The translations under genes and the position numbers were made by a program. The notes below the pieces were generated by a model, which saw nothing but the letters and a program-made list of their open reading frames with translations, ran no database searches and was not told where the DNA came from. This document shows positions 12,343-64,000 of a stretch of DNA of 64,000 nt, in pieces. Positions within the stretch are counted from its first letter, which is position 1. Every line of letters begins with the position of its first letter. Source of the DNA: Alphaproteobacteria bacterium (GTDB lineage: Bacteria > Pseudomonadota > Alphaproteobacteria > MPNO01 > UBA830); NCBI GenBank assembly GCA_964291215.2, contig OZ219791.1, forward strand, positions 960,001-1,024,000. Reading direction: 5' to 3'.

Positions 12343-12461
12343 CGCGCGATGGCGCGATATACCATGATGCCTAGAATTGGATGGCCCAGGCCATGAACCA
12401 CGACGATCCCATCCCAAGTTGGCACTTTTTGTGTTAGTGTAGTGTCCCGCAAATAAGTGTC

Positions 12462-12690
12462 CCCCGTTCCATAGTGAAGTGCAACACATGATGGGCTGTG
12501 GCCATGTGTTTTAAGACGCATGATGTTGCGGAGCGGTAGCGGCGAGAGTTCCTGTACAAGATGAAGGGAGCTTGTTCATGTTCAAAGGTTACCGTCACCT
12601 ACGAAGAGCGATGCCAGATTGAGGCAGAAAAGCGGTTTTTCACAAGGTGCGATTGCTCGGCAGCTGGGCCGTGGTCGATCAACAATTTTC
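12462..12690 (+). pseudogene. IS30-family left end and transposase N-terminal HTH relic
   Basis: End motif TTCCA...TGAAGTGCAACA shared with 24067. Frameshifted MFKGYRH.TYEERCQIEA...SQGAIARQLGRGRSTI, cut by an IS66 end at 12691. Confidence 0.65.
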
Positions 12691-13051
12691 GTAACTGCTC
12701 ACCCCCTGGTTCCGGCTTGATGTCGGGGTAGAGCAACAAACGGGTTTTCGTGGAGATTTGACACTGCAGATCGATTCGGTTAGTGTGAACTTCTTGGGCT
12801 ACCTCCGCCAAATCCTGATCCTGGCTGAATGTCACGGCCACATCGAGAGCGCCGTTGCGTGCCATTCGCACCATGTCGAGACCAATCCGAAGGTCTGTTT
12901 CCTTCTCGCGCTGTGCCGGCACACCATGCGTCGTACCGTCCGGAAGCGGGACCCACTCGGAGCGCGGTTTCCGGGAGGTCACGAGAATCCCGACGCGGCT
13001 CATTGCGGTCAGGCACCGCGCCCGGCACGCCGGATCTTTCCTGGCGTCGGG
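12691..13051 (+). mobile_element. IS66-type left end carrying an antisense NYN (LabA/DUF88) gene fragment
   Basis: Begins GTAACTGCTCACCCC plus about 90 bp of end sequence shared with the other copies. The minus strand (~12785-13050) reads QREKETDLRIGLDMVRMARNGALDVAVTFSQDQDLAEVAQEV, an NYN-type EK.D..I.LD / FSQDQD motif pair. Confidence 0.7.
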
Positions 13052-14224
13052 GCATCTCCTCACCCCTCCGCAGAGGCGGGTTTGGCGTTGTGCATCTTGA
13101 TCATGTCGGCGGCGAGTGCGATCCGGATGGCGACGAGCGGGCTGTAGCCGAGTGCGGTCATGGAGGTGAGATAGCTTGAGCTTCGGCACCAGGCCTCGGC
13201 TAGAGCGGGGTTCGGAAGCATCCGGACACCTTGATCCTGACCTTTGCCATCCGGATTTTCTGCTCGCCGGTGTTGTTGGTGAAGCTGACGTCCGGGTCGC
13301 TCATGAAGCGCAGGACGGACTCTTCATGCCTTGCGAGACGCTCCTGGAGGTTGTGCGCGTTCGCGATCGGTCCGCGTTTTCCTTTCTGTCGGGGCGGGAT
13401 TTCAGGCAGTTCCTTCGCCCCCCGGGTCAGGATGGTCCGGTAGCGCTTGCGCCCGGCCTCGTTCAGGGTCCTGGATGCGCTCTTGTCAACCCTGTGGCAG
13501 GCAGCAGTTTCTTCATCACGCGCGCCCGGCGGTAGCCGTTGGCGTCGACGATGAAGGTCAGTTCCGTCGCGGTAGAAATGCGCATTGCTGCCCCCCCGGC
13601 CTTGCGCTTGATGCGCTGACGGTCCGTGCGGTTCCGCCCGGGCTCGAAGTTGAGCCACACCACCTCGGTGCGGACCCGGGTCGTCACCTGCACGGCGATG
13701 CGGCGCCAGTCCCGCAGCAGGTCGTCGTACAACGCCGAGGGGCGGCCCGAGACCATCACCTGACACGGCAGACCCTTGAGCAGTTCAAGGAGTTCGACAT
13801 GGTCGGCTTCGGTGTAGTCGTGGCGGTACCGCCGGCCCGACCGACGGGTCGCCTGCAGGGATCACTGCAGACCAGTTCCGTGCCCCGGAACGCAAAGCCG
13901 GCCAGGAACGCGTGGGTGCAGCCGTGGATCAGTTTCACCGGATAGTCGCACCCGAACCCGTCCAGCGCTCCCGGTCGATCCCGATCGAGCGCCGGCGCCT
14001 TGCGCTTCATCAGCGCGCCGCCTCCCGGATGTGTTTCCACATACAGATCATGCGGGAGCTGGAGCCCCGGAAGCAGCTGGCACAGCCCGCTCGTCGCCTT
14101 CGATCCAAAGTAGCCCACTGGCGGTCCCCGTCGTTCTCGATGACCACCACTGAACGAATTGGCCTGCAGTGTCAAATCTCCACGAAAGCCCGTTCGTTGC
14201 TCTACCCCGACATCAAGCCGGAAC
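13052..14224 (-). mobile_element. eroded MTase-carrying IS66 element, copy A (MTase pseudogene plus tnpC 3' fragment)
   Basis: MTase GYFGSKATSGLCQ... with five small deletions relative to the intact copy. tnpC residues SFTNNTGEQKIRMAKVRIKVSGCFRT. Degenerate right end GCATCTCCTCACCCC at 13052. Left end truncated by IS256. Confidence 0.85.
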
Positions 14225-15350
14225 GATTACGCAACCTGATGTCTGGAAATTGTCGTGAAGCTGTCAGTCATCAAGCTGTTCCCATTTGATCTTGGTTTCG
14301 GTTTCCCATTTTTCGTCGATGAGGACTGCGGTCGAGAGGCGCTCCAACGAGGTGAGGTTCGGAAAGACCCTGACTTTGGAGGTGCGCCGCTTGAGTTCTT
14401 GCTGGATCGGTCGCTCGATGCCGTTCGAGGTTCGCATACGTTTGCGGTGAGCATCGGGCAAGGTGAAGACAGCGAGCCCCGCATTGTTTTCCAGCCAGGA
14501 AGCCTGGATGCTTGTCGCTGGCCACGAGGGCGCCCAGTTCAGCCTCGGCGGTTTGGAGTGAGGAGGCGTGGCTCCGAGCTGTTTTCCAATACGTTTCCTG
14601 ATGTCGTTGTTCGGTGCACGGCGTTTTATGCCAGGTGGAACTGGCAGTGCTGCCACGTCGCCGCGCCCAGCACCGTGCCGCTTTCAGCCCGGCATCCGAG
14701 ACGATGAAGGTCGTACCATGCAGGGCTAGCAAGCTTTCCAGGAAGGCTCTCCAATGGACCTCGGCCTCGGAGAGCGCCACAGAGAGCCCCGGAACGTGCC
14801 TGCAGCCCCTATTCCGATGGCCGAGAGTACCGCGACATCGCGCACAACGCCGTCATGGCGGGCTTTTTCATAGCGCGCATCCAGGTATTTCATCAGGGGG
14901 CCGGTTGCGCGGCGAGTTCTTCATCGAGCAACCTGGTGGCCCGGCTGACCTGAGAAGAGGACAGGCTCCCGAACTCGCGCATTACATCCTGCCGTGTGGA
15001 AACACCCTTGATGTACATCTCGGCTACGGCGCGAGAAGATCGCTGGCCGCGTTCAAGCGACTGGGGACGGATCGTCCCCGTGACCGTTTGGCACCTGAAC
15101 GGTAACAGTGGGGGTGTCGATCCGCTTGTAGCCGTTGGCATAGCCCTGTCGTTCCGGTGGCCTGCTTTCAAGTGCTGCTCGCGCTCGATTTGCATCGCAA
15201 GCTCGAAGAGCTGACCAAAGATCCGCCCCAGATCCGTTGCTCCGTTTGCGATCAGATGTTCCAAAACGGCCTCAATCGTCGTAGTGTGTCGCAGGTCCAT
15301 TCGCTTCCTCCATGAATGTTTACAGCTCCATGGGATAGCACGATGGCGCC

Positions 15351-24504: not shown

Positions 24505-25964
24505 GGTACTGTAACTTGATGTCTGGAAATTTGTCTGAGGTTTGCGCTTTGAGGCGTTTCACTGGGGGGGGGGGGGTAGTAATTTGACATTATTGTATTG
24601 ATTGATATAGAAACTTCAGTTTCGTCCGGGCATCCTTCGTCGTGAAACGCCAGTCGACAGTGACATCGGCCGCATTGCGGCGCTCGACCCACGCCATGGT
24701 CTCCCGCAGCATGGTGTCGCGGTCGGGAATGCGTCGCCGAAGGCACTGCCGCGACAGCGCACCGATCTCGGCCATGTTGAGCCAGCTTCCATGCTTCGGC
24801 GTATAGCGAAACTCGAACCGCTTTCGTACCCGCCTCCTCGGGCTCGAAGGCTTCATACAGTGACTGTGCGTGTTCAGATTGTCCAGCACGATCTTCCTGT
24901 CGGGGAAATGGTCGTCGGCAAGCTCCCGGATGAAGTGCGTCCAGTCCCGCGGCGGTCGGTGACTTTCACCGTGCGCCAGTTCTCGTTGGGCGCAAAGGCC
25001 ATGAAGAGGTTGGCCTTACCGTTGCGCTCATATTCATAGTCGACCACCTCCGGCTGACCGGGGGATGCGGGTTTCCTGCTGCCGGCTGGTCTCAGCACCT
25101 CGTCCCTGGCAAAGTCCCGCTGATAAATGTCAAGCACATCCTCCATCGCCGCTACGAACTGTGCGCTCCGGTGCGGTGGAATGCACCAGTACTGCTTCAG
25201 CCACGGCTTGATCTCTTTTTTTAGCGTCTTCCTGACCGTTTCTTCCGAAATGCGCTCGACGATCTCCATCTCCACCAGACGGCCGGCAAGCAACTTCAGC
25301 GTCCAGTGTCCACAGCCCTCGGGCGGGGACGAACAGGGCGACCAGCTTCGCCTCCATCGCCCCCGTTTTGGCCGGCGGTTCACCTGCTCCTTGCGGCTGA
25401 GGGCGGCGTCCAGCCCCTCCAAGACGCAGCGCTTGCGCAAGCGCTCGACCGTCGCCGTGCCGATGCCCAGCCCTTGCGCAATGTCGGCATCGACAAGCCG
25501 AGCGCCGTCGCGCCCCTCAGCATCAGGACCTGTGCCCGGCGCCGTGGCAGCGCTGCCAGTTCCACCTGGCGCAAAACGCCGTGCACCGAACAACGACATC
25601 AGGAAACGTATTGGAAAACAGCTCGGAGCCATGCGTCCTCACTCCAAACCGCCGAGGCTGAACTGGGCGCCCTCGTGGCCAGCTATCGCGACAAGCATCA
25701 AAGAATGCGCCCGAGGGGCTCGCTGTCTTCACCTTGCCCGATGCTCACCGCAAGCGCATGCGAACCTCGAATGGTATCGAGCGGCCGATCCAGCAAGAGC
25801 TCAAGCGGCGCACCTCCAAAGTCAGGGTCTTTCCGAACCTCGCCTCGTTGGAGCGCCTCTCAACCGCGGTCCTCATCGACGAAAAATGGGAAACCGAAAC
25901 CAAGATCAAATGGGAACAGCTCGATCAGCTTCACGACAATTTCCAGACATCAGGTTGCGTAATC
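24505..25964 (+). mobile_element. IS256-family element copy 2 (5' part replaced by an IS630 relic)
   Basis: Same TIRs as copy 1. WQRCQFHLAQNA...RMRTSNGIERPIQQELKRRTSKVRVFPN at ~25540-25930. Confidence 0.85.
24577..25530 (-). mobile_element. IS630-family transposase relic
   Basis: WTLKLLAGRLVE, ISEETVRKTLKK, WCIPP, DYEYERNG, LDNLNTH, YTPKHGSWLNMAEI, WRFTTKDARTKLK. The end begins TAG at the IS256 palindrome centre. Confidence 0.85.
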
Positions 25965-26774
25965 AGCGACGCTGCGTTGACCATCACCATCACTCGGCCT
26001 CGACGGTCATGATCGCCGCGAGCATCGCCTGGCGCTCGCCCGGCGGCATCTTCCGGTACCCCGCCGCCCAGCGGGCGGCCTTGCGCTTGATGCGCTGACG
26101 GTCCGTGCGGTTCCGTCCGGCATGGCTGGCCGAGTGCATCCGCCCGGGCTCGAAGTTGAGCCACACCACCTCGGTGCGGACCTGGGCCTGGGTCGTCACC
26201 TGCACGGCAATGCGGCGCCAGTCCCGCAGCAGGTCGTCGTACAACGCCGAGGGATGGCCCGAGACCATTACCTGACACGACAGACCCTTGAGCAGTTCAA
26301 GGAGTTCGACATGGTCGGCTTCGGTGTAGTCGTGGCGGTACCGCCGCTTCGACCGGCGGGTCGCCTGCAGGTACGGCGGGTCGCTGTAGACCAGTTCCGT
26401 GCCCCGGAACGCAAAGCTGGCCAGGAACGCGTGGGCGCAGCCGTGGATCAGTTTCACCGGATAGTCGCACCCGAACCCGTCCAGCGCTCGCTGGTCCCGG
26501 TCGATCCCGATCGAGCACAGCGCCGGCGCCTTGCGCTTCATCAGCGCGCCGCCTCCGAGATGCGTTTCCACATACAGATCATGCGGGGGCTGGAGCCCCA
26601 GAAGCAGTTGGCATAGCCCGCTCGTCGCCTTCGATCCAAAGTAGCCCACTGGCGATCCTCGTCGTTCTTGATGACCGTCACTAAACGAATCGGTCTGCAA
26701 TGTCAAATCTCCGCGAAAACCCGTTCGTTGCTCTACCCCGACATCAAGCCGGAACCGGGGGGGTGAGCAGTTAC
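25965..26774 (-). mobile_element. MTase-carrying IS66 element copy B (left TIR plus intact MTase; tnpC cut after about 9 codons by IS256)
   Basis: Left TIR GTAACTGCTCACCCC ends at 26774, with the same ~110-bp end as 62043. Confidence 0.85.
25990..26649 (-). CDS. D12/Dam-class N6-adenine DNA methyltransferase, intact, cargo of an IS66 element
   Basis: GYFGSK (motif X-like), YVETHLGGGA (motif I-like), IGIDRD, LVYSDPPY (motif IV), VMVSG, RTEVVWLNF. 219 aa from the GTG start, no frameshift. Stop TGA overlaps the next ATG. Confidence 0.88.
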   Translation of the reverse strand: MGYFGSKATSGLCQLLLGLQPPHDLYVETHLGGGALMKRKAPALCSIGIDRDQRALDGFGCDYPVKLIHGCAHAFLASFAFRGTELVYSDPPYLQATRRSKRRYRHDYTEADHVELLELLKGLSCQVMVSGHPSALYDDLLRDWRRIAVQVTTQAQVRTEVVWLNFEPGRMHSASHAGRNRTDRQRIKRKAARWAAGYRKMPPGERQAMLAAIMTVEAE

Positions 26775-26801
26775 TATTTGGATATAATATAGGAGACGCA
26801 T

Positions 26802-26868
26802 ATGCATACCACGAATCTGCGCAAAGTTGGCGGCTCCGTGATGCTTGCCGTGTCTCCAGCGCTTCCAG
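26802..26868 (+). pseudogene. PemI/MazE (AbrB-fold) antitoxin N-terminal fragment
   Basis: AGGAG RBS followed by MHTTNLRKVGGSVMLAVSPAL, then the frame is lost. Confidence 0.7.
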
Positions 26869-26869
26869 G

Positions 26870-28788
26870 AGCGGCCCGTCCCGCTATCCGAGCAGGCGCC
26901 CGGAACGCGCACGCGATAATCCGGATCGATGCCGACCAAGTGCGAGCCGAAGGCGGCATGGTGAAGCTTCGACAGCGGTAGGCTGTTCTCCACGACGGGC
27001 TGGCCCATCGCCTCGTCCGCGTCGGAAACGATGTGCACCGCATCGAGAAGACGGGGTTCGCGCAGTCTCGACAGGGCGCAGCGTCCCCTGTACGCCGTGA
27101 TCACCGCTCCCGGAACGAAGCTTGGTGCAGGCACCGCTTCACGGTGGTCAGGACATGGCGGCGCTCGGACGCATTCTGCGCCGCCGCCAGGCTATCTTGG
27201 TCGAGCATGCCGAAGGTGAACCTTCTCCTTGAGTAGGCGGGATCCGATCCGGAAATGAAGCTCGGGACTATCGCCTGGTACCGGCTAGTGTTATGTCAGC
27301 AATGATATGTCGTACATTTGGTGCTAGACTGTCCGTCCATTCGGGATGGAGGTCGGAGTATGAAACGCTACGTGGTGACCCTGGACGAACGGGCAGAACT
27401 TTCGGAGATCAAGGGCTCGCACCTGTCGCAAAAGGTAATCAACGCCCTGCTTAACTGCGACGAGGGCGCGTTCAATGAATGCCAGATGACCGGGAAGGTC
27501 ATTGCCGAGATTCTGCGCATCAGCATGCGCAAAGTAGACCGGGTGAAAAAGCGTTTCGAGGGGCTGGAGGCGGCATTGGGTGGCCGGCGCCGTCCTACCT
27601 ACATGCGAAAAGCCGACGGCGTCTTCGAGGCGCGTGGCCCTGAGTTGTGGTGAACCGCCTGAGGGTTACGCGCAATGGTCGTTGCGGCTGCTGGCCGACC
27701 GCGTTGTCGAGCTTGGTTACACCGTGTCACACGAGACGGTGCGGCGTGTTCTAAAAAAAACTGCCTCAAGCCATGGCAGCGGGTGGGTGATTCCTCCTCA
27801 AGGGAACGCCGACTTCGCCACAGCGAAGGTACTCAATGTCTATCGCCGTCCCGCCGCTTTCCCCGTGGTCTGCATGGACGAAACGCCCCGACCGGCGAGA
27901 CACGGCAACCGATCGCCATGGCGCCGGGACGGGCATAACGACTACGAGTATCGACGTTGCGGTACCTGCAACGTCTTCATGGAACCCCTGGCCGGCAAGC
28001 GCATGACCAAGGCAACCGAGCGCAAGATCGACTGGGCGCAGTTCCTGGCCGACATCGCCGAGCGCTACCAGGATGCTACCACCATCACCCTGGTGATGGA
28101 CAATCTCAACACTCCCCGGCGCCTTCTATGAGGCCTACCCGCCGGACGAGGCCTTGTGGGACCGCTTCGAGTTCGTCTACACCCCCAAGCATGGCAGTTG
28201 GCTGAACGTGGTCGAACTCAACGTCATGATCCGCCTGAACCGCCGCATCGAGGTGCTACGCCGGGAAGTCGCCGCCTGGCAGGCGACCGCATTCAGGCCA
28301 AGGTGGATTGGCAGTTCACCACCGACGATGCCCGCGTGAAACTCAAACGTCTTTATTCGACATTTGACGAATGACAAGACACTAGGCGCGATCCCGGGAA
28401 AGTAGATGACCGGGACCCTGTTCTCGTACGCCGCGCGCAGCCACCGGTTGTCGGCCGCGTCCGGATTGGTGCCCATGATGGCATAGTCGACAGCCTCGCT
28501 GCCTTCGAAGATCTGCTGGTGCACATGGCGCTGGTCGTGGTACCAGACCCGACCGCCGGGTTTCGGGAAGATGGTCCTGATCGATAGCAGGAAGCGCATC
28601 TCCTTCGGCTTGAAAATGTCCCGCTGCCGATTGACGATGGGGATGCATCTGTCCTCGAAGGTGAGGCCCTGTTCGAACTCGGTCGCCCCTGTCAGGTGGC
28701 CGTGGACCTCGGATATCCTTCGAACCTGTTCGAAGGCGGCGAGGCGCATCGAAGTGTCTGCTCCGGGAAAATCGGCAAAATTCTCCAT
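26870..28788 (-). pseudogene. HNH endonuclease (predicted restriction endonuclease, COG3440-like), split by IS630 and frameshifted
   Basis: N-terminal part MRLAAFEQVR...IFKPKEMRFLLSIRT...NRWLRAAYENRVPVIYFPGIAP rejoins SRYQAIVPSFISG across the CTAG site. C-terminal part AYRGRCALSRLREPRLLDAVHI...LSKLHHAAF..HLVGIDPDY. Confidence 0.8.
27286..28384 (+). mobile_element. IS630-family element, eroded
   Basis: TIRs TAGTGTTATGTCA / TAGTGTCTTGTCA with CTAG at both junctions. A8 slippery tract near 27753. VVCMDE, MDNLNT, YTPKHGSWLN, WQFTTDDARVKLKRLY. Confidence 0.88.
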
Positions 28789-57667: not shown

Positions 57668-58761
57668 GGCCGTTCGGATCGCTTTCCGTGTATCTCGGGC
57701 GGCAGTTCCTGTTCTGGTTCCTCTGCTTCGCGTTTGCGCTGCTGGCTGTCATCATGCTTGTCGACATGGTCGAGATCTTCCGGCGGGTGTCTCAGCGCGG
57801 GGAGGGAGGCGGCATCTTCGTGGTTCTCCGAATGGTCCTGCTCAAGGCGCCGTCCATGCTGGAGAAGACAATCCCGTTCGCGGCGCTGCTGGGCACGGCG
57901 GCAATGCTGTGGCGCCTCAATCGTCACCACGAAATCGTGGTGATGCGGGCGTCGGGCATATCGGTCTGGCAGATTCTTGCGCCGGTCGTGGTGCTTGCGA
58001 TCGCCATCGGCATGGTCAAGGTCACGGTGATCAATCCGTTCGCGTCGGCGGCGCTGCTGAGCTATGAAATTCTTGAGGCAAAGCACATCCGTGGCCGGAC
58101 AAACCTCGCTGCTGTCGCAAGAAACGGGCTGTGGTTCAGGCAGTCCCTACCCGAGGGCAGTTACATCCTGCATGCGAGTTCGATCTCGATCGAGGATGTC
58201 CGCCTGAAGGATGTCGTCGTATTCCGGATGCGCGACGGCGACCAATTCGTGGCCCGGATAGACGCTCCTGCGGCGGTCCTCGAAGGCGGGCACTGGCGGA
58301 TCGAGAACCCGACCATCGCCGCGCCGGACTCGCAACCCGCCCGCCCGGGGACGATCCGTCTGTCCACGGACCTGACCCCCGAGAATATCAATGACAGCTT
58401 TGCTCCGCCGGAGACGATCTCGTTCTGGTCTTTGCCGTCCTTCATCCGTGTCCTCGAGAGTGCCGGATTTTCTGGCATTCGCCACAAGCTGCACTGGCAC
58501 GCCGAACTTGCGCTGCCGTTTCTGCTGGCCGCTATCGTCCTGCTGGCGGCCACGTTTTCCCTGAGGCCAGCAAGACAGCGCGGCGGCACCGTCGTCGTGG
58601 CAGCGAGTCTCGGCACAGCGTTCCTGCTCTACTTCCTGACCGACATTGCCCATGCGCTGGGTTCGTCAACCAGAATCCCGATCCTGATGGCGGTGTGGGC
58701 GCCGGTGCTGGTCGGTTTCTTTGCTGGCATCGGCGTCCTGTTGCATCTCGAGGACGGTTGA
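57664..58761 (+). CDS. lptG: LPS export ABC transporter permease LptG
   Basis: LSVYLGRQF, EIVVMRASGISVWQ, GLWFRQ, SFWSLP.FI, AVWAP, LLHLEDG. Confidence 0.92.
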   Translation: MRPFGSLSVYLGRQFLFWFLCFAFALLAVIMLVDMVEIFRRVSQRGEGGGIFVVLRMVLLKAPSMLEKTIPFAALLGTAAMLWRLNRHHEIVVMRASGISVWQILAPVVVLAIAIGMVKVTVINPFASAALLSYEILEAKHIRGRTNLAAVARNGLWFRQSLPEGSYILHASSISIEDVRLKDVVVFRMRDGDQFVARIDAPAAVLEGGHWRIENPTIAAPDSQPARPGTIRLSTDLTPENINDSFAPPETISFWSLPSFIRVLESAGFSGIRHKLHWHAELALPFLLAAIVLLAATFSLRPARQRGGTVVVAASLGTAFLLYFLTDIAHALGSSTRIPILMAVWAPVLVGFFAGIGVLLHLEDG

Positions 58762-58762
58762 A

Positions 58763-60958
58763 ATGCGATCTGCTGCCAGGCTGGCCGCGGCGGCTGCGAT
58801 GCTGGTTGCGCTGCAGGTAATGGTCGCGGCGCCGGCAAACGCCCAGGTTGCGGATCCGTCCGGCGATCACGGGCCTGTGCTGTTCGAGGCCGAAGATGTC
58901 CGCCATGACCGTGAGACCGGCATCGTGGTGGCGACGGGACATGTCCGCTTCAGCCGCGGCGACAGGACCCTGCTCGCCGACCGTATCGCCTACGATCAGC
59001 GCGCGGGCACTGTCACGGCTTCGGGCAATGTCCGGCTGCATGAACCGACAGGGGAGGTCGTGTTCGCCGACGAGATGGTCCTGGACGACCCGCTCAAGGA
59101 GGCAGTCGCGGAGAATATCGCGCTGCGGTTCACCGACGACTCCCGCGTCGCCGCGGCCAGCGGACGCCGAACGGGCGACGGGATCACGGAATTCCGGAAG
59201 ATGGTGTATTCGCCGTGCAAGCTTTGCGAGGACGATCCCGACAGCGAGCCCATATGGCAGCTCAAGGCCTACAAGGCGATCCACGACCAGAACAGGAACG
59301 ACATCATCTATGAGGGAGCCTTTCTCGAGTTCTTCGGACTCCCGGTATTCTATGTGCCATGGTTTTCCCATCCTGATCCCACCGTGGAAAGGCGATCCGG
59401 TTTCCTGCTGCCGTCATACATCAGCGACGACGATCTCGGTGTGGTCGTCAAGACGCCGTACTACCTCGATCTGGCGCCGAACATCGATTTGACTTTGACG
59501 CCGGTGCTCACGACGCGCGAGGGTGTCGGCGCCGAGATGCGGTTCCGGCATCTCCTCGACAATGCGGAGTACGACATCTTGGGCAGCGCTTATTACGAAT
59601 CCGATGTCGACAGCGCGGAGGTGAATACACTGCGGGGCGCGGTACGTTCCCGTTTCCGCCTTCATATCGACGATACCTGGCGCGCGGGCGCCGACCTGCG
59701 TCTGGCATCGGATGATACCTACATGCGCAAATACGAGTTCGTTGCCGAGGACACGCTGGAGAACCGGTTGCGCCTTGAGGGCTTCATGGGCACGGACTAC
59801 GCCGCAGCTACCGGCTATTATTTTCAAAGCCTGAGGCCCGACGACCGCTCCGGAGAGATTCCGGTTGTACTGCCGATGCTCGATTACAGCTTCGTGGGCG
59901 ATCCGGGGCCGCGAGGCCAGTTGTGGAAGGTGGACGCCAACATCCTCAACCTGTACCGGAGGGCCGGCACGGATACCCGCCGCGCTTCGGTCAGGACCTG
60001 GTGGGAGGTTCCCGGCGCAACCGGGGGCGGAGACATCTACCGCCTGTTCGGATCGCTTCAGGCGGATGCCTACTGGACCAACTACGGAGATTCGGACGGG
60101 GCCAGCGAGCGGGGCCGGCTGTTTCCGCAGGTCGGCATCGATTGGCGCAGGCCGCTGTTCCGGGTGTCGCGGAGCCACACCGAGATCCTGGAACCGGCGG
60201 CAACTCTGATTCTCGCGCCTGACGCGCAGAACACGAAGGACATTCCCAACGAAGACAGCATCGGCGTGGAGTTCGACGACGCGAATCTGTTTGCCACGAA
60301 CCGCAATACCGGAATCGATCGGGTCGAGGGCAATCCGCGCATCAGCTACGGGCTCCACGGCGGCGTCTACGGCAAGCGGGGTGGCCTCAGCACGTTCTTC
60401 GTCGGACAGAGCTATCGCTTCAGCGGCGACAACGATTTCGGCGCGCGTACGGGGCTCAAGAGAAAACTGTCGGATGTCGTGGGCAGCGTCCGGGTGTCTC
60501 CTGGCGACAGATTCGATCTCCTCTACCGGTTCCGCATCGACAATGCGAGCTGGTCGATGCGCCACAGCGAGCTTCAGGGCTCGGCCGGAGGGGCTCGGCT
60601 CCGTCTTGACGTTAGCCACCTGCTGATCAAGGAGCAGGATGCCGGAGTTTCGGTCGACCCGGACTATCCTTTTGACGAGCGCGAGGAGATCAGGGCGGAA
60701 ATTTCATCGAGTTTTGCAAGGTACTGGCGCTCGGGGATCAATCTTCATCGCGATCTCACCGGCGGGGGCCGCTCGCTCCGCCACGGCGCGTACCTGATGT
60801 ATGACGACGAGTGCTTTCATTTTCGCATCGACTATTCGCGGAGGTTCACCCGCAGCCGACTGCTGCGGCCGCAGGACACGATTTTCCTTCGCATCGGCCT
60901 GAAGACGTTGGGTGAGTCCGGTTTTTCAGGGTTCCAGAAGCCGGCCCGCGACCGCTGA
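58763..60958 (+). CDS. lptD: LPS-assembly outer membrane protein LptD
   Basis: ATGHVR, YSPCKLC, P.WQLKA, HPDPTVERRSGFLLP, IPNEDS..EFDDANLF, YDDECF, LKTLG. Confidence 0.93.
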   Translation: MRSAARLAAAAAMLVALQVMVAAPANAQVADPSGDHGPVLFEAEDVRHDRETGIVVATGHVRFSRGDRTLLADRIAYDQRAGTVTASGNVRLHEPTGEVVFADEMVLDDPLKEAVAENIALRFTDDSRVAAASGRRTGDGITEFRKMVYSPCKLCEDDPDSEPIWQLKAYKAIHDQNRNDIIYEGAFLEFFGLPVFYVPWFSHPDPTVERRSGFLLPSYISDDDLGVVVKTPYYLDLAPNIDLTLTPVLTTREGVGAEMRFRHLLDNAEYDILGSAYYESDVDSAEVNTLRGAVRSRFRLHIDDTWRAGADLRLASDDTYMRKYEFVAEDTLENRLRLEGFMGTDYAAATGYYFQSLRPDDRSGEIPVVLPMLDYSFVGDPGPRGQLWKVDANILNLYRRAGTDTRRASVRTWWEVPGATGGGDIYRLFGSLQADAYWTNYGDSDGASERGRLFPQVGIDWRRPLFRVSRSHTEILEPAATLILAPDAQNTKDIPNEDSIGVEFDDANLFATNRNTGIDRVEGNPRISYGLHGGVYGKRGGLSTFFVGQSYRFSGDNDFGARTGLKRKLSDVVGSVRVSPGDRFDLLYRFRIDNASWSMRHSELQGSAGGARLRLDVSHLLIKEQDAGVSVDPDYPFDEREEIRAEISSSFARYWRSGINLHRDLTGGGRSLRHGAYLMYDDECFHFRIDYSRRFTRSRLLRPQDTIFLRIGLKTLGESGFSGFQKPARDR

Positions 60959-61105
60959 CGCGGGACGGTCGGCAGAACCCGGAGATTCCCGTTCCCTGAT
61001 CCGGTTGCTTCGAAGGCGGTCTCGCGTGTTCGCCGATCCCCTGCTACACGATCCTTTCCGGGAGGCACCCGGGGCGTAACTGATCAAACACGGACGTTCG
61101 GTAGT

Positions 61106-61444
61106 GTAACTGCTCAAGCCTGATTTTGTCGAGCGCTCACAGGCCGTGGATTGATGGTTCCGATGTGGTGGCGCCGAGGGAGGATTTCGCAAGCGCAGTT
61201 TCGGGATCAGCTGGATGGGGCCGGGCCAGCGTTTTTAGGACATTCAAGCCTTGCTTTCGGGGGAATTACGGATCGCAGGTTGGCGAAGTCGCAGGCGCCT
61301 TGCATGGAGCGGAAGCCACCCGAGATATTCTGTCGCAGCTTGCCGATCCGGAGACCGCGCTCGGCCTCGTTGAGAGTGCGTCGGCGTCGGCGCAATCAGC
61401 ACCTGGCTCAGACCCGTCGTTGCCTTCGATCCGAAATACCCCAA
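61106..61444 (-). mobile_element. internally deleted relic of a second MTase-IS66 lineage
   Basis: GYFGSKATTGLSQVLIAPTPTH joined directly to tnpC LNEAERGLRIGKLRQNISGGFRSMQGACDFANLRSVI. End GTAACTGCTCAAGCC at 61106. Confidence 0.7.
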
Positions 61445-61720
61445 CCGCCGCCCTTCTGTGCTGGATGCCCGAACTCGGTAGCGTCGGCAGCCTTGATCGG
61501 GGTGGCGCCGATGGCTGACGACCACGGTGCCCGGCACATCCGCGGCGGGCGCAGAAGGCCACGCGATCTCCTGTTCATAGCCGCAATCTCGGCGGCACGC
61601 TTCAACGCAGATCTGGTGTTCGAACGCCTCGAGACCGCCGGCAAGCAAGGTCGCGATTGTCGCCGTGATGCGCAACGTGCTGGCGAACACCTTAGATGCG
61701 ACAGCAGCGTTGCTGGTCGC
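61445..61720 (+). pseudogene. IS110-family transposase C-terminal fragment
   Basis: WMPELG, AALIGVAPMADD.G.RHIRGGRRRPRDLLFIAAISAARFN, KVAIVAVMR. Confidence 0.7.
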
Positions 61721-61756
61721 CCGAAGCACCGATGAGTGAGCGAAGGAGACCCCCTC

Positions 61757-62010
61757 ATGGCTCTCACCCCTGCCGAGAAGCAGCGCCGTTATCGGGAACG
61801 CTGCAAATACCCGCCCACGGAAAGCCCTGTCGTTCCCGTGCGCAACGCTGGCGCGACGCGGTGGCTCGGTGCATTGCAGGAGCACTGTTGGGGCAGTCTC
61901 GACAATCTCCCCGCGCGACACGGCTTGCGGAGAATGTCTGCAGATCATTGTCGAGGCCGGCATCGAGGCTCTCGAGGAGATCGAACCGCCGCGCGGCTAC
62001 GGACGGGACA
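61757..62010 (+). pseudogene. eroded small MGE-associated hypothetical protein
   Basis: Frameshifted MALTPAEKQRRYRER...RAQRWRDAVA...LDNLP...IEPPRGYGRD. Confidence 0.45.
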
Positions 62011-62042
62011 CCCGGAACTCCATTGAACATGGTAACGTTATC

Positions 62043-63566
62043 GTAACTGCTCACCCCCTGGTTCCGGCTTGATGTCGGGGTAGAGCAACGAACGGGTTTT
62101 CGTGGAGGTTTGACACTGCAGGCCGATTCGTTTAGTGGTGGTTATCGAGAACGACGGGGACCGGCAGTGAGCTACTTTGGATCGAAGGCGACGAGCGGGC
62201 TGTGCCATCGGAGGCGGCGCGCTGATGAAGCGCAAGGCCGGGCAGCGGAGTACCGGAAGATGCCGCCGGGCGAGCGCCAGGCGATGCTCGCGACGATCAT
62301 GACCGTCGAGGCCGGGTGATGGCGACGGGCGGCGCGCGAGGAGTTCGAAGCGGCCAAGACTGCGGCGCTGCCGGCAAGGTGGCGGAAGAGGCCGTCATCC
62401 GCGTCCTCGTCATCCTGCTCGACATCCTCATCGTCGTCCTTCTGGAGAAGACCACGCACGAGCCGAAACTCCGGTCTGCCGCCGTCACAGACGGACAAGA
62501 GCGTGCCGGAAGCAACGGTAAGGGCCCGAAGCCGAACCGGCAGATGGGCGACAACCTGCGCAAGATCATCGTCGAGGAGACGGTCGCGGCCTGCGACGCC
62601 TGCGGCGCCGACGGCCCCGTCGATCGGGAGCGCCGCACGACATCGTGTTCGAGGTCGTCGAGCGCCGCGCCGAGATCAAGGAATGCCCGAAGTGCAAGGC
62701 CCGGTTCCCCGACAACATCCCGTGCAGTACGGCATCGGCATTCAGGCCCTCGTCATCAACCTGCTGGTCGCCCAAATGCTGTCCCTGCGCCGTCGCGCTC
62801 GTGCAGGCGATCTCCGGCATCAAGCTCTCCGAGGCCTCGGCTATGCTTTCACGATGCGTCATGGGAGGAGGCTGCCGTGGCGCACCTCCTGCAACGCCCG
62901 ATGTCGACGATTTCGGATCAACGGCAAGTGGCTTCATGTCGTGGGACCCTGACGTGCAAGTTCCCGCACCGCAAGCGCGGGCAAGAGATCGGCCCGTGCT
63001 ACAAGGGCGTCCTGGGCCTCGTACATGGGCCAGTGTAGCCACCAGCTGTGCGGAGCCACCTACTGCGCGAACTGACCTTTGTCGTCGAGGCTACCGCGCG
63101 ACTGATGAAGAGCCTGCTCCGCGAAGTCTGCCACAAGATCAACAAGAGCGCATCCAAGACCCTGAACGGGGCCGACCGCCGGGCCGTGCACAAGCGCTAC
63201 CGCACCATCAGGGCGCCAAGGAACTGCCCGACATCCCGCCGAAAGGAAAACGTGGACGCAAGTCCGACGCGCACAACCTGCACGAACGTCTCGTGAAACA
63301 CGAAAACCTGCGCTTCATAGACGACCCCGATGTCAGCTTCACCAACAATGCCGGAGAACAGAAGATCAGGATGGCAAAGGTCAAGGTGTCCGGATGCTTC
63401 CGCTCCACGCAAAAGCATGGTGCCGGGGCTCGAGCTACCTCACCTCCATGGCCGCACTCGGCTACAACCCACTCGTCGCCACCCAGATCGCCCTCGACGG
63501 AAAAGCCGCAGACATCATCAACGAGCACCACGACCAATCAGAACCCAACTAGGGGTGAGTAGATAC
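62043..63566 (+). mobile_element. MTase-carrying IS66 element copy C, fully delimited but internally deleted (MTase relic plus tnpC relic)
   Basis: TIRs GTAACTGCTCACCCC / GTATCTACTCACCCC. Perfect 8-bp TSD ACGTTATC (62035-62042 and 63567-63574). MTase ends YFGSKATSGLC...RKMPPGERQAMLA. tnpC features LLEKTT..NSGLPPSQTD, CxxC pairs, QYG.GI.A, SHLLREL, FTNNAGEQKIRMAKVK.SGCFRS. Confidence 0.92.
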
Positions 63567-64000
63567 ACGTTATCATGCCCGGGGACGCTGGGCGGCAAGG
63601 TGGCCGCGCTCACGTGACCAATGGACGGCAACCCGCCGCCGGGACCACAAGCTGCATGTCGCCTCGCTCGCAGGACATCGACAAGGCGGAACCCCGGACC
63701 GTCTGTGGACAACCACGGAAAACATCGCCGCGGACACCCGCAAAAACCTTGCCAGGAAACATGGATGCTCGTTCAGGGTCTTTGATCAAGGTGATCTCAT
63801 GCTTGTTGATGTGATCGGAGTCCTGATCGCGGCGCGGGTCGACGCGTTCGAGGCTGCGATTTTGAGATTTGCTGACGCGCTGTTGCGGCGCGGGGCACGA
63901 TTGGTCGGCGTATCCGGAGCGAGCGAGAGGCCTGCCGGGCTCGAAAGCCTGCGGTTTCTGTCGGGGAGAGAGGCGCGGTCAGCCGGGTCTTGTGATTGCG

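Follow-up and report, generated by a model that had tools for sequence, protein, structure and literature searches.

The insertion sequences (ISs) IS10 and IS50 are controlled by host Dam methylation, and leader hairpins act on read-through RNA in both; ISs with methyltransferase passenger genes also exist. In IS66 elements of the classical group (IS679 type), tnpA and tnpB lie upstream of the transposase gene tnpC. IS66 elements with a single transposase are already known as well: as far as the consulted sections of its description go, the ISBst12 group (e.g., ISDge4) has GTAA-type imperfect terminal repeats, an 8-bp target duplication, and one IS66 DDE transposase (PF03050, NF033517) without tnpA or tnpB (PMC12898284). 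ISs with passenger genes have been described, including the transporter ISs (tISs) (PMC9330008, consulted sections), and an IS-encoded repressor is known in Arc of IS605-family elements, a ribbon-helix-helix accessory protein with demonstrated binding that represses its own promoter (bioRxiv 10.64898/2026.09.24.754181, consulted sections). The closest tested homologue of the protein considered here is Upf31 of IncP-1beta plasmids, which is 45% identical across 222 residues, over the full length including the C-terminal helices (E 7e-66). The consulted sections of its report state that Upf31 represses its own promoter approximately 50-fold (4.76 to 0.09 units), that Y180A, F185A, and W198A each abolish repression, and that the C-terminal helices are required; they record no GATC methylation, no signal in SMRT sequencing (of a strain that, as described, carried the expression vector only), and no growth cost of induced Upf31 without its plasmid (PMC11997246). 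The authors name the repeats 5′-CAGCATCG-3′ as the likely Upf31 site, and the upf31 promoter holds TTGACAGCATCG-N10-CGATGCTG (half-sites CATCG and CGATG), which corresponds to the tested promoter and the marked repeat in the portions of Fig. S6/S7 consulted (PMC11997246).

The window, a stretch of 64,000 nucleotides from contig OZ219791.1 of an Alphaproteobacteria bacterium, contains a dead IS66-family element at 62043-63566; in its intact relatives, a methylase-like gene and a palindromic promoter site precede the transposase (Table 1). These relatives are two-gene IS66 units in which a Dam-fold gene takes the place of tnpA and tnpB and probably regulates the transposase. The borders of the window element are fixed by ACGTTATC at either side, an exact 8-bp target duplication as in IS66 elements generally, the chance of a given 8-mer being approximately 6e-6 per position. 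The left end opens with GTAACTGC and the right end with GTATCT, that is, with ends of the GTAA type seen in IS66 elements, and relatives have GTAACT at either terminus. A leader of 124 bp is followed by a relic of the methylase-fold gene and by frameshifted tnpC pieces with several small deletions, which extend to approximately 63552; the pieces are matched by the proteins of intact relatives in tblastn and, searched alone, gave no Pfam match. The preliminary description of an element with such ends, a perfect duplication, and a methyltransferase relic ahead of tnpC is thereby borne out, as is its observation of a TGATG overlap (62317-62321), in which the stop of the relic overlaps the start of tnpC.

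Table 1. Coordinates of the IS66-family element and of related copies in the window.
Feature	Position	Strand	Remark
Left 8-bp target duplication, ACGTTATC	62035..62042	+	Exact repeat of the right copy
Left terminal inverted repeat, GTAACTGCTCACCCC	62043..62057	+	220 such left ends in the genome
Predicted sigma-70 promoter with decayed operator	62110..62138	+	Activity presumed by analogy with the tested upf31 promoter, which has the same layout
Predicted -35 box, TTGACA	62110-62115	+	Window element
Predicted -10 box, TAGTGG	62133-62138	+	Window element
Weak inverted repeat between -10 box and ribosome-binding region	62138..62163	+	Putative role
Relic of Upf31-family methylase-fold gene	62167..62319	+	153 bp, two internal deletions, open to TGA
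tnpC (IS66 DDE transposase) pseudogene	62319..63552	+	tblastn with intact relatives; ATG shares bases with the relic's TGA
Right terminal inverted repeat, GTATCTACTCACCCC read inward	63552..63566	-	Matches the left repeat at 13/15 bases
Right 8-bp target duplication, ACGTTATC	63567..63574	+	
Second copy	25965..26774	-	Left end, leader, full gene, ~9 tnpC codons
Full-length 219-aa methylase-fold gene (P0001) of second copy	25990..26649	-	
Third copy	13052..14224	-	Left end clipped, worn right end
Orphan left end	12692..12786	+	Same family as the 62043-63566 element
Family B element relic	61106..61450	-	First 24 methylase-fold codons fused to tnpC 3′ end and right end

The preliminary description counted three copies with a common left end, whereas the 6.15-Mb genome holds 220 left ends of the family of the window element (family A) and a second family (family B) of 12 copies. 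The second copy in the window does show the TGATG overlap, but only about nine tnpC codons precede an IS256-type element (PF00872) that ends it, so no tnpC is coupled there. The third copy is indeed related, but the first ~19 bp of its left end were lost through a similar insertion, and it belongs to another subfamily (75% identity); its methylase-fold gene is nearly full but frameshifted, and mainly the 3′ part of tnpC is kept. Among the 220 family A left ends, the gene is a short relic in 164, long in 7, and unclassifiable in 49, and a relic length of 129 bp is common to 100 of the 164; an exact 8-bp duplication is found in 114 of the 220 copies. In all 82 uninterrupted, duplication-bounded family A copies tnpC is broken, with a median of seven small deletions, and five deletions that break or shorten tnpC are common to more than half of these copies, which implies that much of the spread of family A needed no tnpC of its own. 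Because no full-length TnpC of family A or B occurs among the 79 long TnpC-matching frames of the genome and tnpC is broken in all 82 of these family A copies, the window element is a dead copy. The two whole family A methylase-fold genes of the genome have a dN/dS of 0.74, a value that fits lost constraint. The methylase relics remain in frame in 120 of 164 family A copies, which is weak as proof of coupling because approximately two deletion events, one of them between same-frame repeats, account for them.

Family B copies are ~99.7% identical, 11 of the 12 have an exact duplication, and 10 keep an intact methylase-fold gene (75% identical to P0001); their tnpC carries frameshifts within the first 120 codons. 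These frameshifts are shared by near-identical copies (e.g., L001:443-2800), which a trans-acting or shortened transposase may have moved. Family A has lost operator and gene and has 220 copies, whereas family B keeps both and has 12, a single comparison that is confounded by age. Elsewhere in the genome, a third left-end type, GTAACTACTTGCCCC, precedes a frameshifted methylase-fold gene (G000:C2:2408399). Decayed ISs of several families are very abundant genome-wide and in the window at 12400-15000, 24600-28300, and 61000-63600; deletions of 5-7 bp predominate in the IS66 copies, and the host gene at 58721-60958 is open across 745 codons. Regarding expression, two RNA runs hold 5-6% of the words, which correspond to contigs of relatives, and neither start nor strand is visible in them.

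Homologues of the methylase-fold protein number at least 2760 by a word-based search and 8901 clusters by a profile search. The loci compared here are the 77 best-matching genome loci, many of them repeated copies within fewer than 20 genomes, and the best 80 metagenome loci, and thus comprise closest relatives only, at 60-85% identity. A same-strand IS66 tnpC lies directly downstream in 143 of these 157 closest loci listed, in line with the tnpC adjacency that the preliminary description proposed to look for, and in 60 of 72 representatives of the closest relatives after reduction to <90% identity. Three of the other 12 representatives end too early to tell and nine have no match; among these nine, L120 and L133 match the IS66 model, L135 and L145 have an IS66 left end, L086 and L103 belong to other IS families, an IS4 gene lies downstream in L166, and no transposase accompanies L093 or L100. 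At L093 (4001-4663), the gene has an intact operator, and an 8-oxoguanine glycosylase-like gene and a PfkB/nucleoside deoxyribosyltransferase gene lie downstream. An exact 8-bp duplication was found at 57 of the 157 loci, many of which are on short contigs. The records of relatives include Alphaproteobacteria, Dehalococcoidia, Tectimicrobiota, and Binatia. The cassette is patchy, since only 3 of 401 randomly sampled genomes of the phylum, the genome of the window included, match at E≤1e-20. More distant homologues (43-56% identity) were found on 203 plasmids as well as on phages, and none of 80 viral loci has tnpC.

In all 12 intact, duplication-bounded relatives, the leader (112-302 nt), gene (660-675 nt), gap (-8 to +30 nt), tnpC (1398-1542 nt), and trailer (4-102 nt) fill the whole element. 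No space is left for tnpA or tnpB, whose absence had been noted from the window copies, and the five tnpB matches in the genome lie elsewhere. The intact relatives therefore lack the tnpA-tnpB-tnpC order of the classical group, and with TnpC proteins above the cut-offs of PF03050 and NF033517 and one transposase gene they match the ISBst12 group in gene content. They differ from that group, as described in the consulted part of PMC12898284, in that the left end and tnpC are separated by an extra gene of 219-224 aa, which brings its own promoter and palindrome, and the cassette-bearing elements are 2.24-2.6 kb long. The gene is always upstream of and co-oriented with tnpC, and in 37 of 38 intact elements the gap does not exceed 30 nt (range over the 38, -29 to +108); 11 of the 38 overlap and 27 do not, so translational coupling, which the preliminary description took to be a property of the unit, does not hold in general.

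The methylase-fold protein scores under the cut-offs of PF02086 and TIGR00571. Its structure model (mean pLDDT 78.5) has EcoDam (E 7e-7, TM ~0.55) and DpnM as top Foldseek matches, and it shares with the alpha-class (D12) enzymes Dam and DpnM the Rossmann fold and the order of motif I and DPPY. By contrast, the distance from motif I to DPPY is ~149 residues in DpnM but 58 in each of the near homologues that have both motifs (118 of 118). The segment is thus ~90 residues shorter, the target-recognition domain that lies between motif I/II and DPPY in Dam/D12 enzymes is missing, and the C-terminus is extended by two basic helices. The element's "own adenine methyltransferase" hence stands as far as the Dam fold and DPPY are concerned, but not as an enzyme with a target-recognition domain, and Upf31 is methylation-negative in the consulted sections of PMC11997246. 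All 120 near homologues and 142 of 150 distant ones retain DPPY, a pattern more in keeping with an active enzyme than with a protein that only represses. Judged from codon comparisons, the gene is under purifying selection (median dN/dS 0.196 over 2126 pairs) that appears stronger than that on tnpC: in 501 non-independent pairs with both genes, the values are 0.215 for the methylase-fold gene and 0.303 for tnpC. Matches of the protein to TPR repeats among PDB sequences were discarded as chance. Two distant homologues (P0157 and P0235) are fused to a second domain that, by eye, resembles a cytosine methyltransferase.

The protein shares with Upf31 the motif spacing, the C-terminal helices, and a TTGACA promoter overlaid by a palindrome with the same layout (PMC11997246, consulted sections). 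Upf31 W198 corresponds to W194, which is W in 70 of 70 proteins; residue 181 (Upf31 F185) is F in 54 of 70, and position 176 is Y or F in 57 of 70. At the positions of the Upf31 aromatics Y180 and F185, the protein of the window carries H176 and R181. The two systems differ in that the IS half-site is CATAG and that of Upf31 is CATCG, and in that the ISs have one site where Upf31 has clusters; furthermore, the IS-borne gene sits upstream of a transposase and has no known KorB partner, and the 6-bp restriction palindromes that flank Upf31 sites are mostly missing in the ISs (4 of 68 right sides) (PMC11997246, consulted sections).

A TT(G/T)AC box is present in 68 of 72 representative leaders, the other four being rearranged or cut by contig ends. 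In the 68 leaders, the palindrome CATAG-N10-CTATG covers the predicted -35 and -10 boxes, and its 10-nt spacer is free in sequence; operator positions 10-12 are TAG in 67-68 of 68, positions 23-25 are CTA in 65-68 of 68, and A stands at position 25 in all 68. Operator symmetry peaks at the 10-nt spacer (6.6 of 9, compared with 1.0-3.2 in shifted alignments). An inverted repeat with a 10-nt spacer over the promoter, as in the Upf31 family, is thus common to the elements, although it has decayed in the window lineage, where the operator of the window element reads TGCAG-N10-TTAGT. Of 57 relaxed matches in 72 loci, 56 fall in the leader; this position on the promoter, together with the absence of GATC upstream of 62180 in the window element, speaks against the earlier suggestion that the element methylates its ends. 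The operator also accompanies the gene outside ISs: 17 strict sites occur in seven of nine plasmid loci, against 0.135 expected (two of the loci are near-identical upf31 regions), and 42 strict sites in 80 viral loci, against 1.6 expected.

Residue 181 is the top one of 219 columns for covariation with the operator (mutual information 0.60, next 0.15; 68 of 70 proteins). F181 pairs with operator A9/T26 in 53 of 54 cases, and residues other than F with G9 or C26 in 15 of 16, a link that amounts to two to four independent changes, was defined post hoc, and is not significant in a sign test (p 0.5). The window lineage has R181 or H181 and 4 of 10 operator core bases, even where the gene is whole, and family B has F181 and 10 of 10.

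Downstream of the -10 box, an inverted repeat with at least 7 of 10 pairs occurs in 61% of 66 leaders and in 10% of shuffles, and G-U exceeds A-C in the hairpin, 53 to 19, modestly above the shuffles (4528 to 2605). As the first arm mostly lies before the expected transcription start, the hairpin would form chiefly in read-through RNA. GATC stands at a fixed spot right after the -10 box in 25 of 68 leaders, often accompanied by a second GATC in the opposite arm, and host Dam could exert additional control through these sites.

At plasmid and phage loci (L007-L009 and L176-L261), 6-bp restriction palindromes abut operator-like sites in a fixed register. They occur at offset 0-2 on 73 of 194 sides in 36 representatives (<75% identity), with a background of 1.4% per position, and on 61 of 116 sides at sites adjoining the gene; the 15 kinds are mostly CTGCAG, TGGCCA, and GGTACC. 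Clustered restriction sites are known for IncP-1beta in the consulted part of PMC3590792, and our literature search found no report of such palindromes beside operator-like sites in phages.

The TnpC proteins of cassette carriers form four deep lineages with ~30-35% mutual identity. By contrast, the methylase-fold genes that precede two of these lineages and an IS701 transposase fall in one starred clade (100/96), and monophyly of the genes of the main TnpC lineage was rejected (p-AU 0.03; 24-row subset, simple model). Set against six homologues from plasmids and phages, the IS-borne proteins group in a single branch (support 89/92, not starred). The cassette has moved between transposases. 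Two loci, L086:3446-6228 and L263:1501-4284, are 99% identical copies of a 2783-bp IS701-family element, in which inverted ends of ~20 bp surround the promoter, operator, gene, and IS701 transposase; no target duplication was established from these two copies. In L103:1-2136, the contig is an entire IS4-superfamily element between 16-bp inverted ends (a single copy without flanks), and the stop of the cassette gene overlaps the start of the transposase gene. Only L086/L263 and L103 were counted as carriers outside IS66: L082 (IS21), L136, and L145 appear to be insertions within an IS66 copy, an IS66 left end and the start of tnpC are present in L160, and L166, with its IS4 gene 67 nt downstream, was left out of the count. 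The operator, the link to Upf31, and the sharing of the cassette with other IS families were missed in the preliminary description.

By analogy with Upf31, the reading that we favor, with somewhat better than even confidence, is that a captured autorepressor of the Upf31 family binds the palindrome on the shared promoter and represses its own gene together with the transposase. The protein would bind the palindrome as a dimer, block RNA polymerase, and set the level of both its own gene and tnpC, which are presumably co-transcribed. Arrival in a repressor-free cell would permit a burst of transposase until repressor accumulates, which would then silence all copies in trans, and the leader hairpin would hide the ribosome-binding site in transcripts from outside. 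The SAM/DPPY pocket may secondarily bind or methylate an operator adenine; plain occupancy leaves the pocket unexplained. In the window lineage, operator and gene decayed and the shortened element spread. Such a protein would resemble Arc as an IS accessory protein that represses its own promoter, although it has an enzyme fold, and its role is proposed from sequence (compared with the consulted sections of bioRxiv 10.64898/2026.09.24.754181).

A possible, if rather unlikely, alternative is a very specific methyltransferase whose sole target is the split site on its own promoter and whose methylation acts as a switch, such that transposase would be made only if the site is un- or half-methylated, after replication or transfer. 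This would be a self-supplied analogue of the Dam control of IS10 and IS50, with a methylase-fold protein encoded by the element instead of the host, and the adenine of the -10 box is the invariant one. The near-invariant SAM motif and DPPY, the Dam fold, and A25 in 68 of 68 leaders argue for it, and since the SMRT strain carried the vector only, a rare 10-base split site may have gone unnoticed in the Upf31 test (PMC11997246, consulted sections). On the other hand, methylation has been seen with no family member, the domain that helps Dam to read and flip DNA is absent, and repression by Upf31 needs C-terminal aromatics, with no catalytic mutants reported in the consulted sections of PMC11997246. 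A broader form of this idea is more doubtful still: the Upf31 family would be a portable methylation switch that, without a target-recognition domain, binds a split palindrome, writes or reads methyl marks, and, given that its plasmid and phage sites abut restriction palindromes of many enzymes in a fixed register, could sense the restriction-modification state of the host, and three IS families would have captured it to fire the transposase on arrival and then fall silent.

It is improbable that the gene is a passenger, which would mean that capture supplied the IS with a ready-made promoter while the gene is simply carried or regulates only itself, with transposition unaffected. Such cargo is suggested by the 164 of 171 classifiable family A copies that lost most of the gene in a family that still has 220 left ends, by an IS701 relative without the cassette in the genome of the window, and by the transposition of ISBst12-group elements with one gene (PMC12898284, consulted sections). 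Nevertheless, purifying selection on the gene exceeds that on tnpC, its placement relative to tnpC is constant, and several unrelated transposases captured the cassette in the same position. Compared with tISs as described in the consulted part of PMC9330008, which likewise carry a non-transposase gene, the extra gene here is dispensable in cis in family A, yet it is conserved, and the conserved site that accompanies it on the shared promoter suggests a role in control and not mere cargo.

Least probable of all is an adenine methylase of broad or no specificity that protects the element or its donor DNA against restriction or alters the host methylome, as had been proposed: the missing target-recognition domain could mean low specificity, homologues reside on phages and conjugative plasmids, which commonly carry anti-restriction methylases, and their sites are flanked by restriction palindromes, but a broad enzyme would not need one conserved promoter palindrome, and the absence of that domain also speaks against activity on the host methylome. 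The negative GATC, SMRT, and growth results for induced Upf31 likewise argue against it (PMC11997246, consulted sections). Broad methylation and passive cargo fit worse than autorepression or operator methylation, and the cassette is likely a self-repressing brake on transposition rather than a genome-wide methylase.

Our literature searches, which had ISfinder, REBASE, and the main IS66 reviews outside their scope, returned no paper on IS66 elements with an Upf31-family gene; ISfinder may already list IS66 members with an extra gene. The cassette is a candidate self-control device for IS66 elements without tnpA and tnpB, and one regulatory cassette moves among plasmids, phages, and at least three IS families. 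The function of the Upf31 "methylase" becomes testable, because its likely target is a defined split site, and a candidate specificity residue is at hand together with natural variants of residue and site; the published negative methylation test was probably carried out without many copies of the split site (PMC11997246, consulted sections). Thousands of "DNA adenine methylase" annotations in the Upf31 family may therefore denote repressors or operator-specific enzymes.
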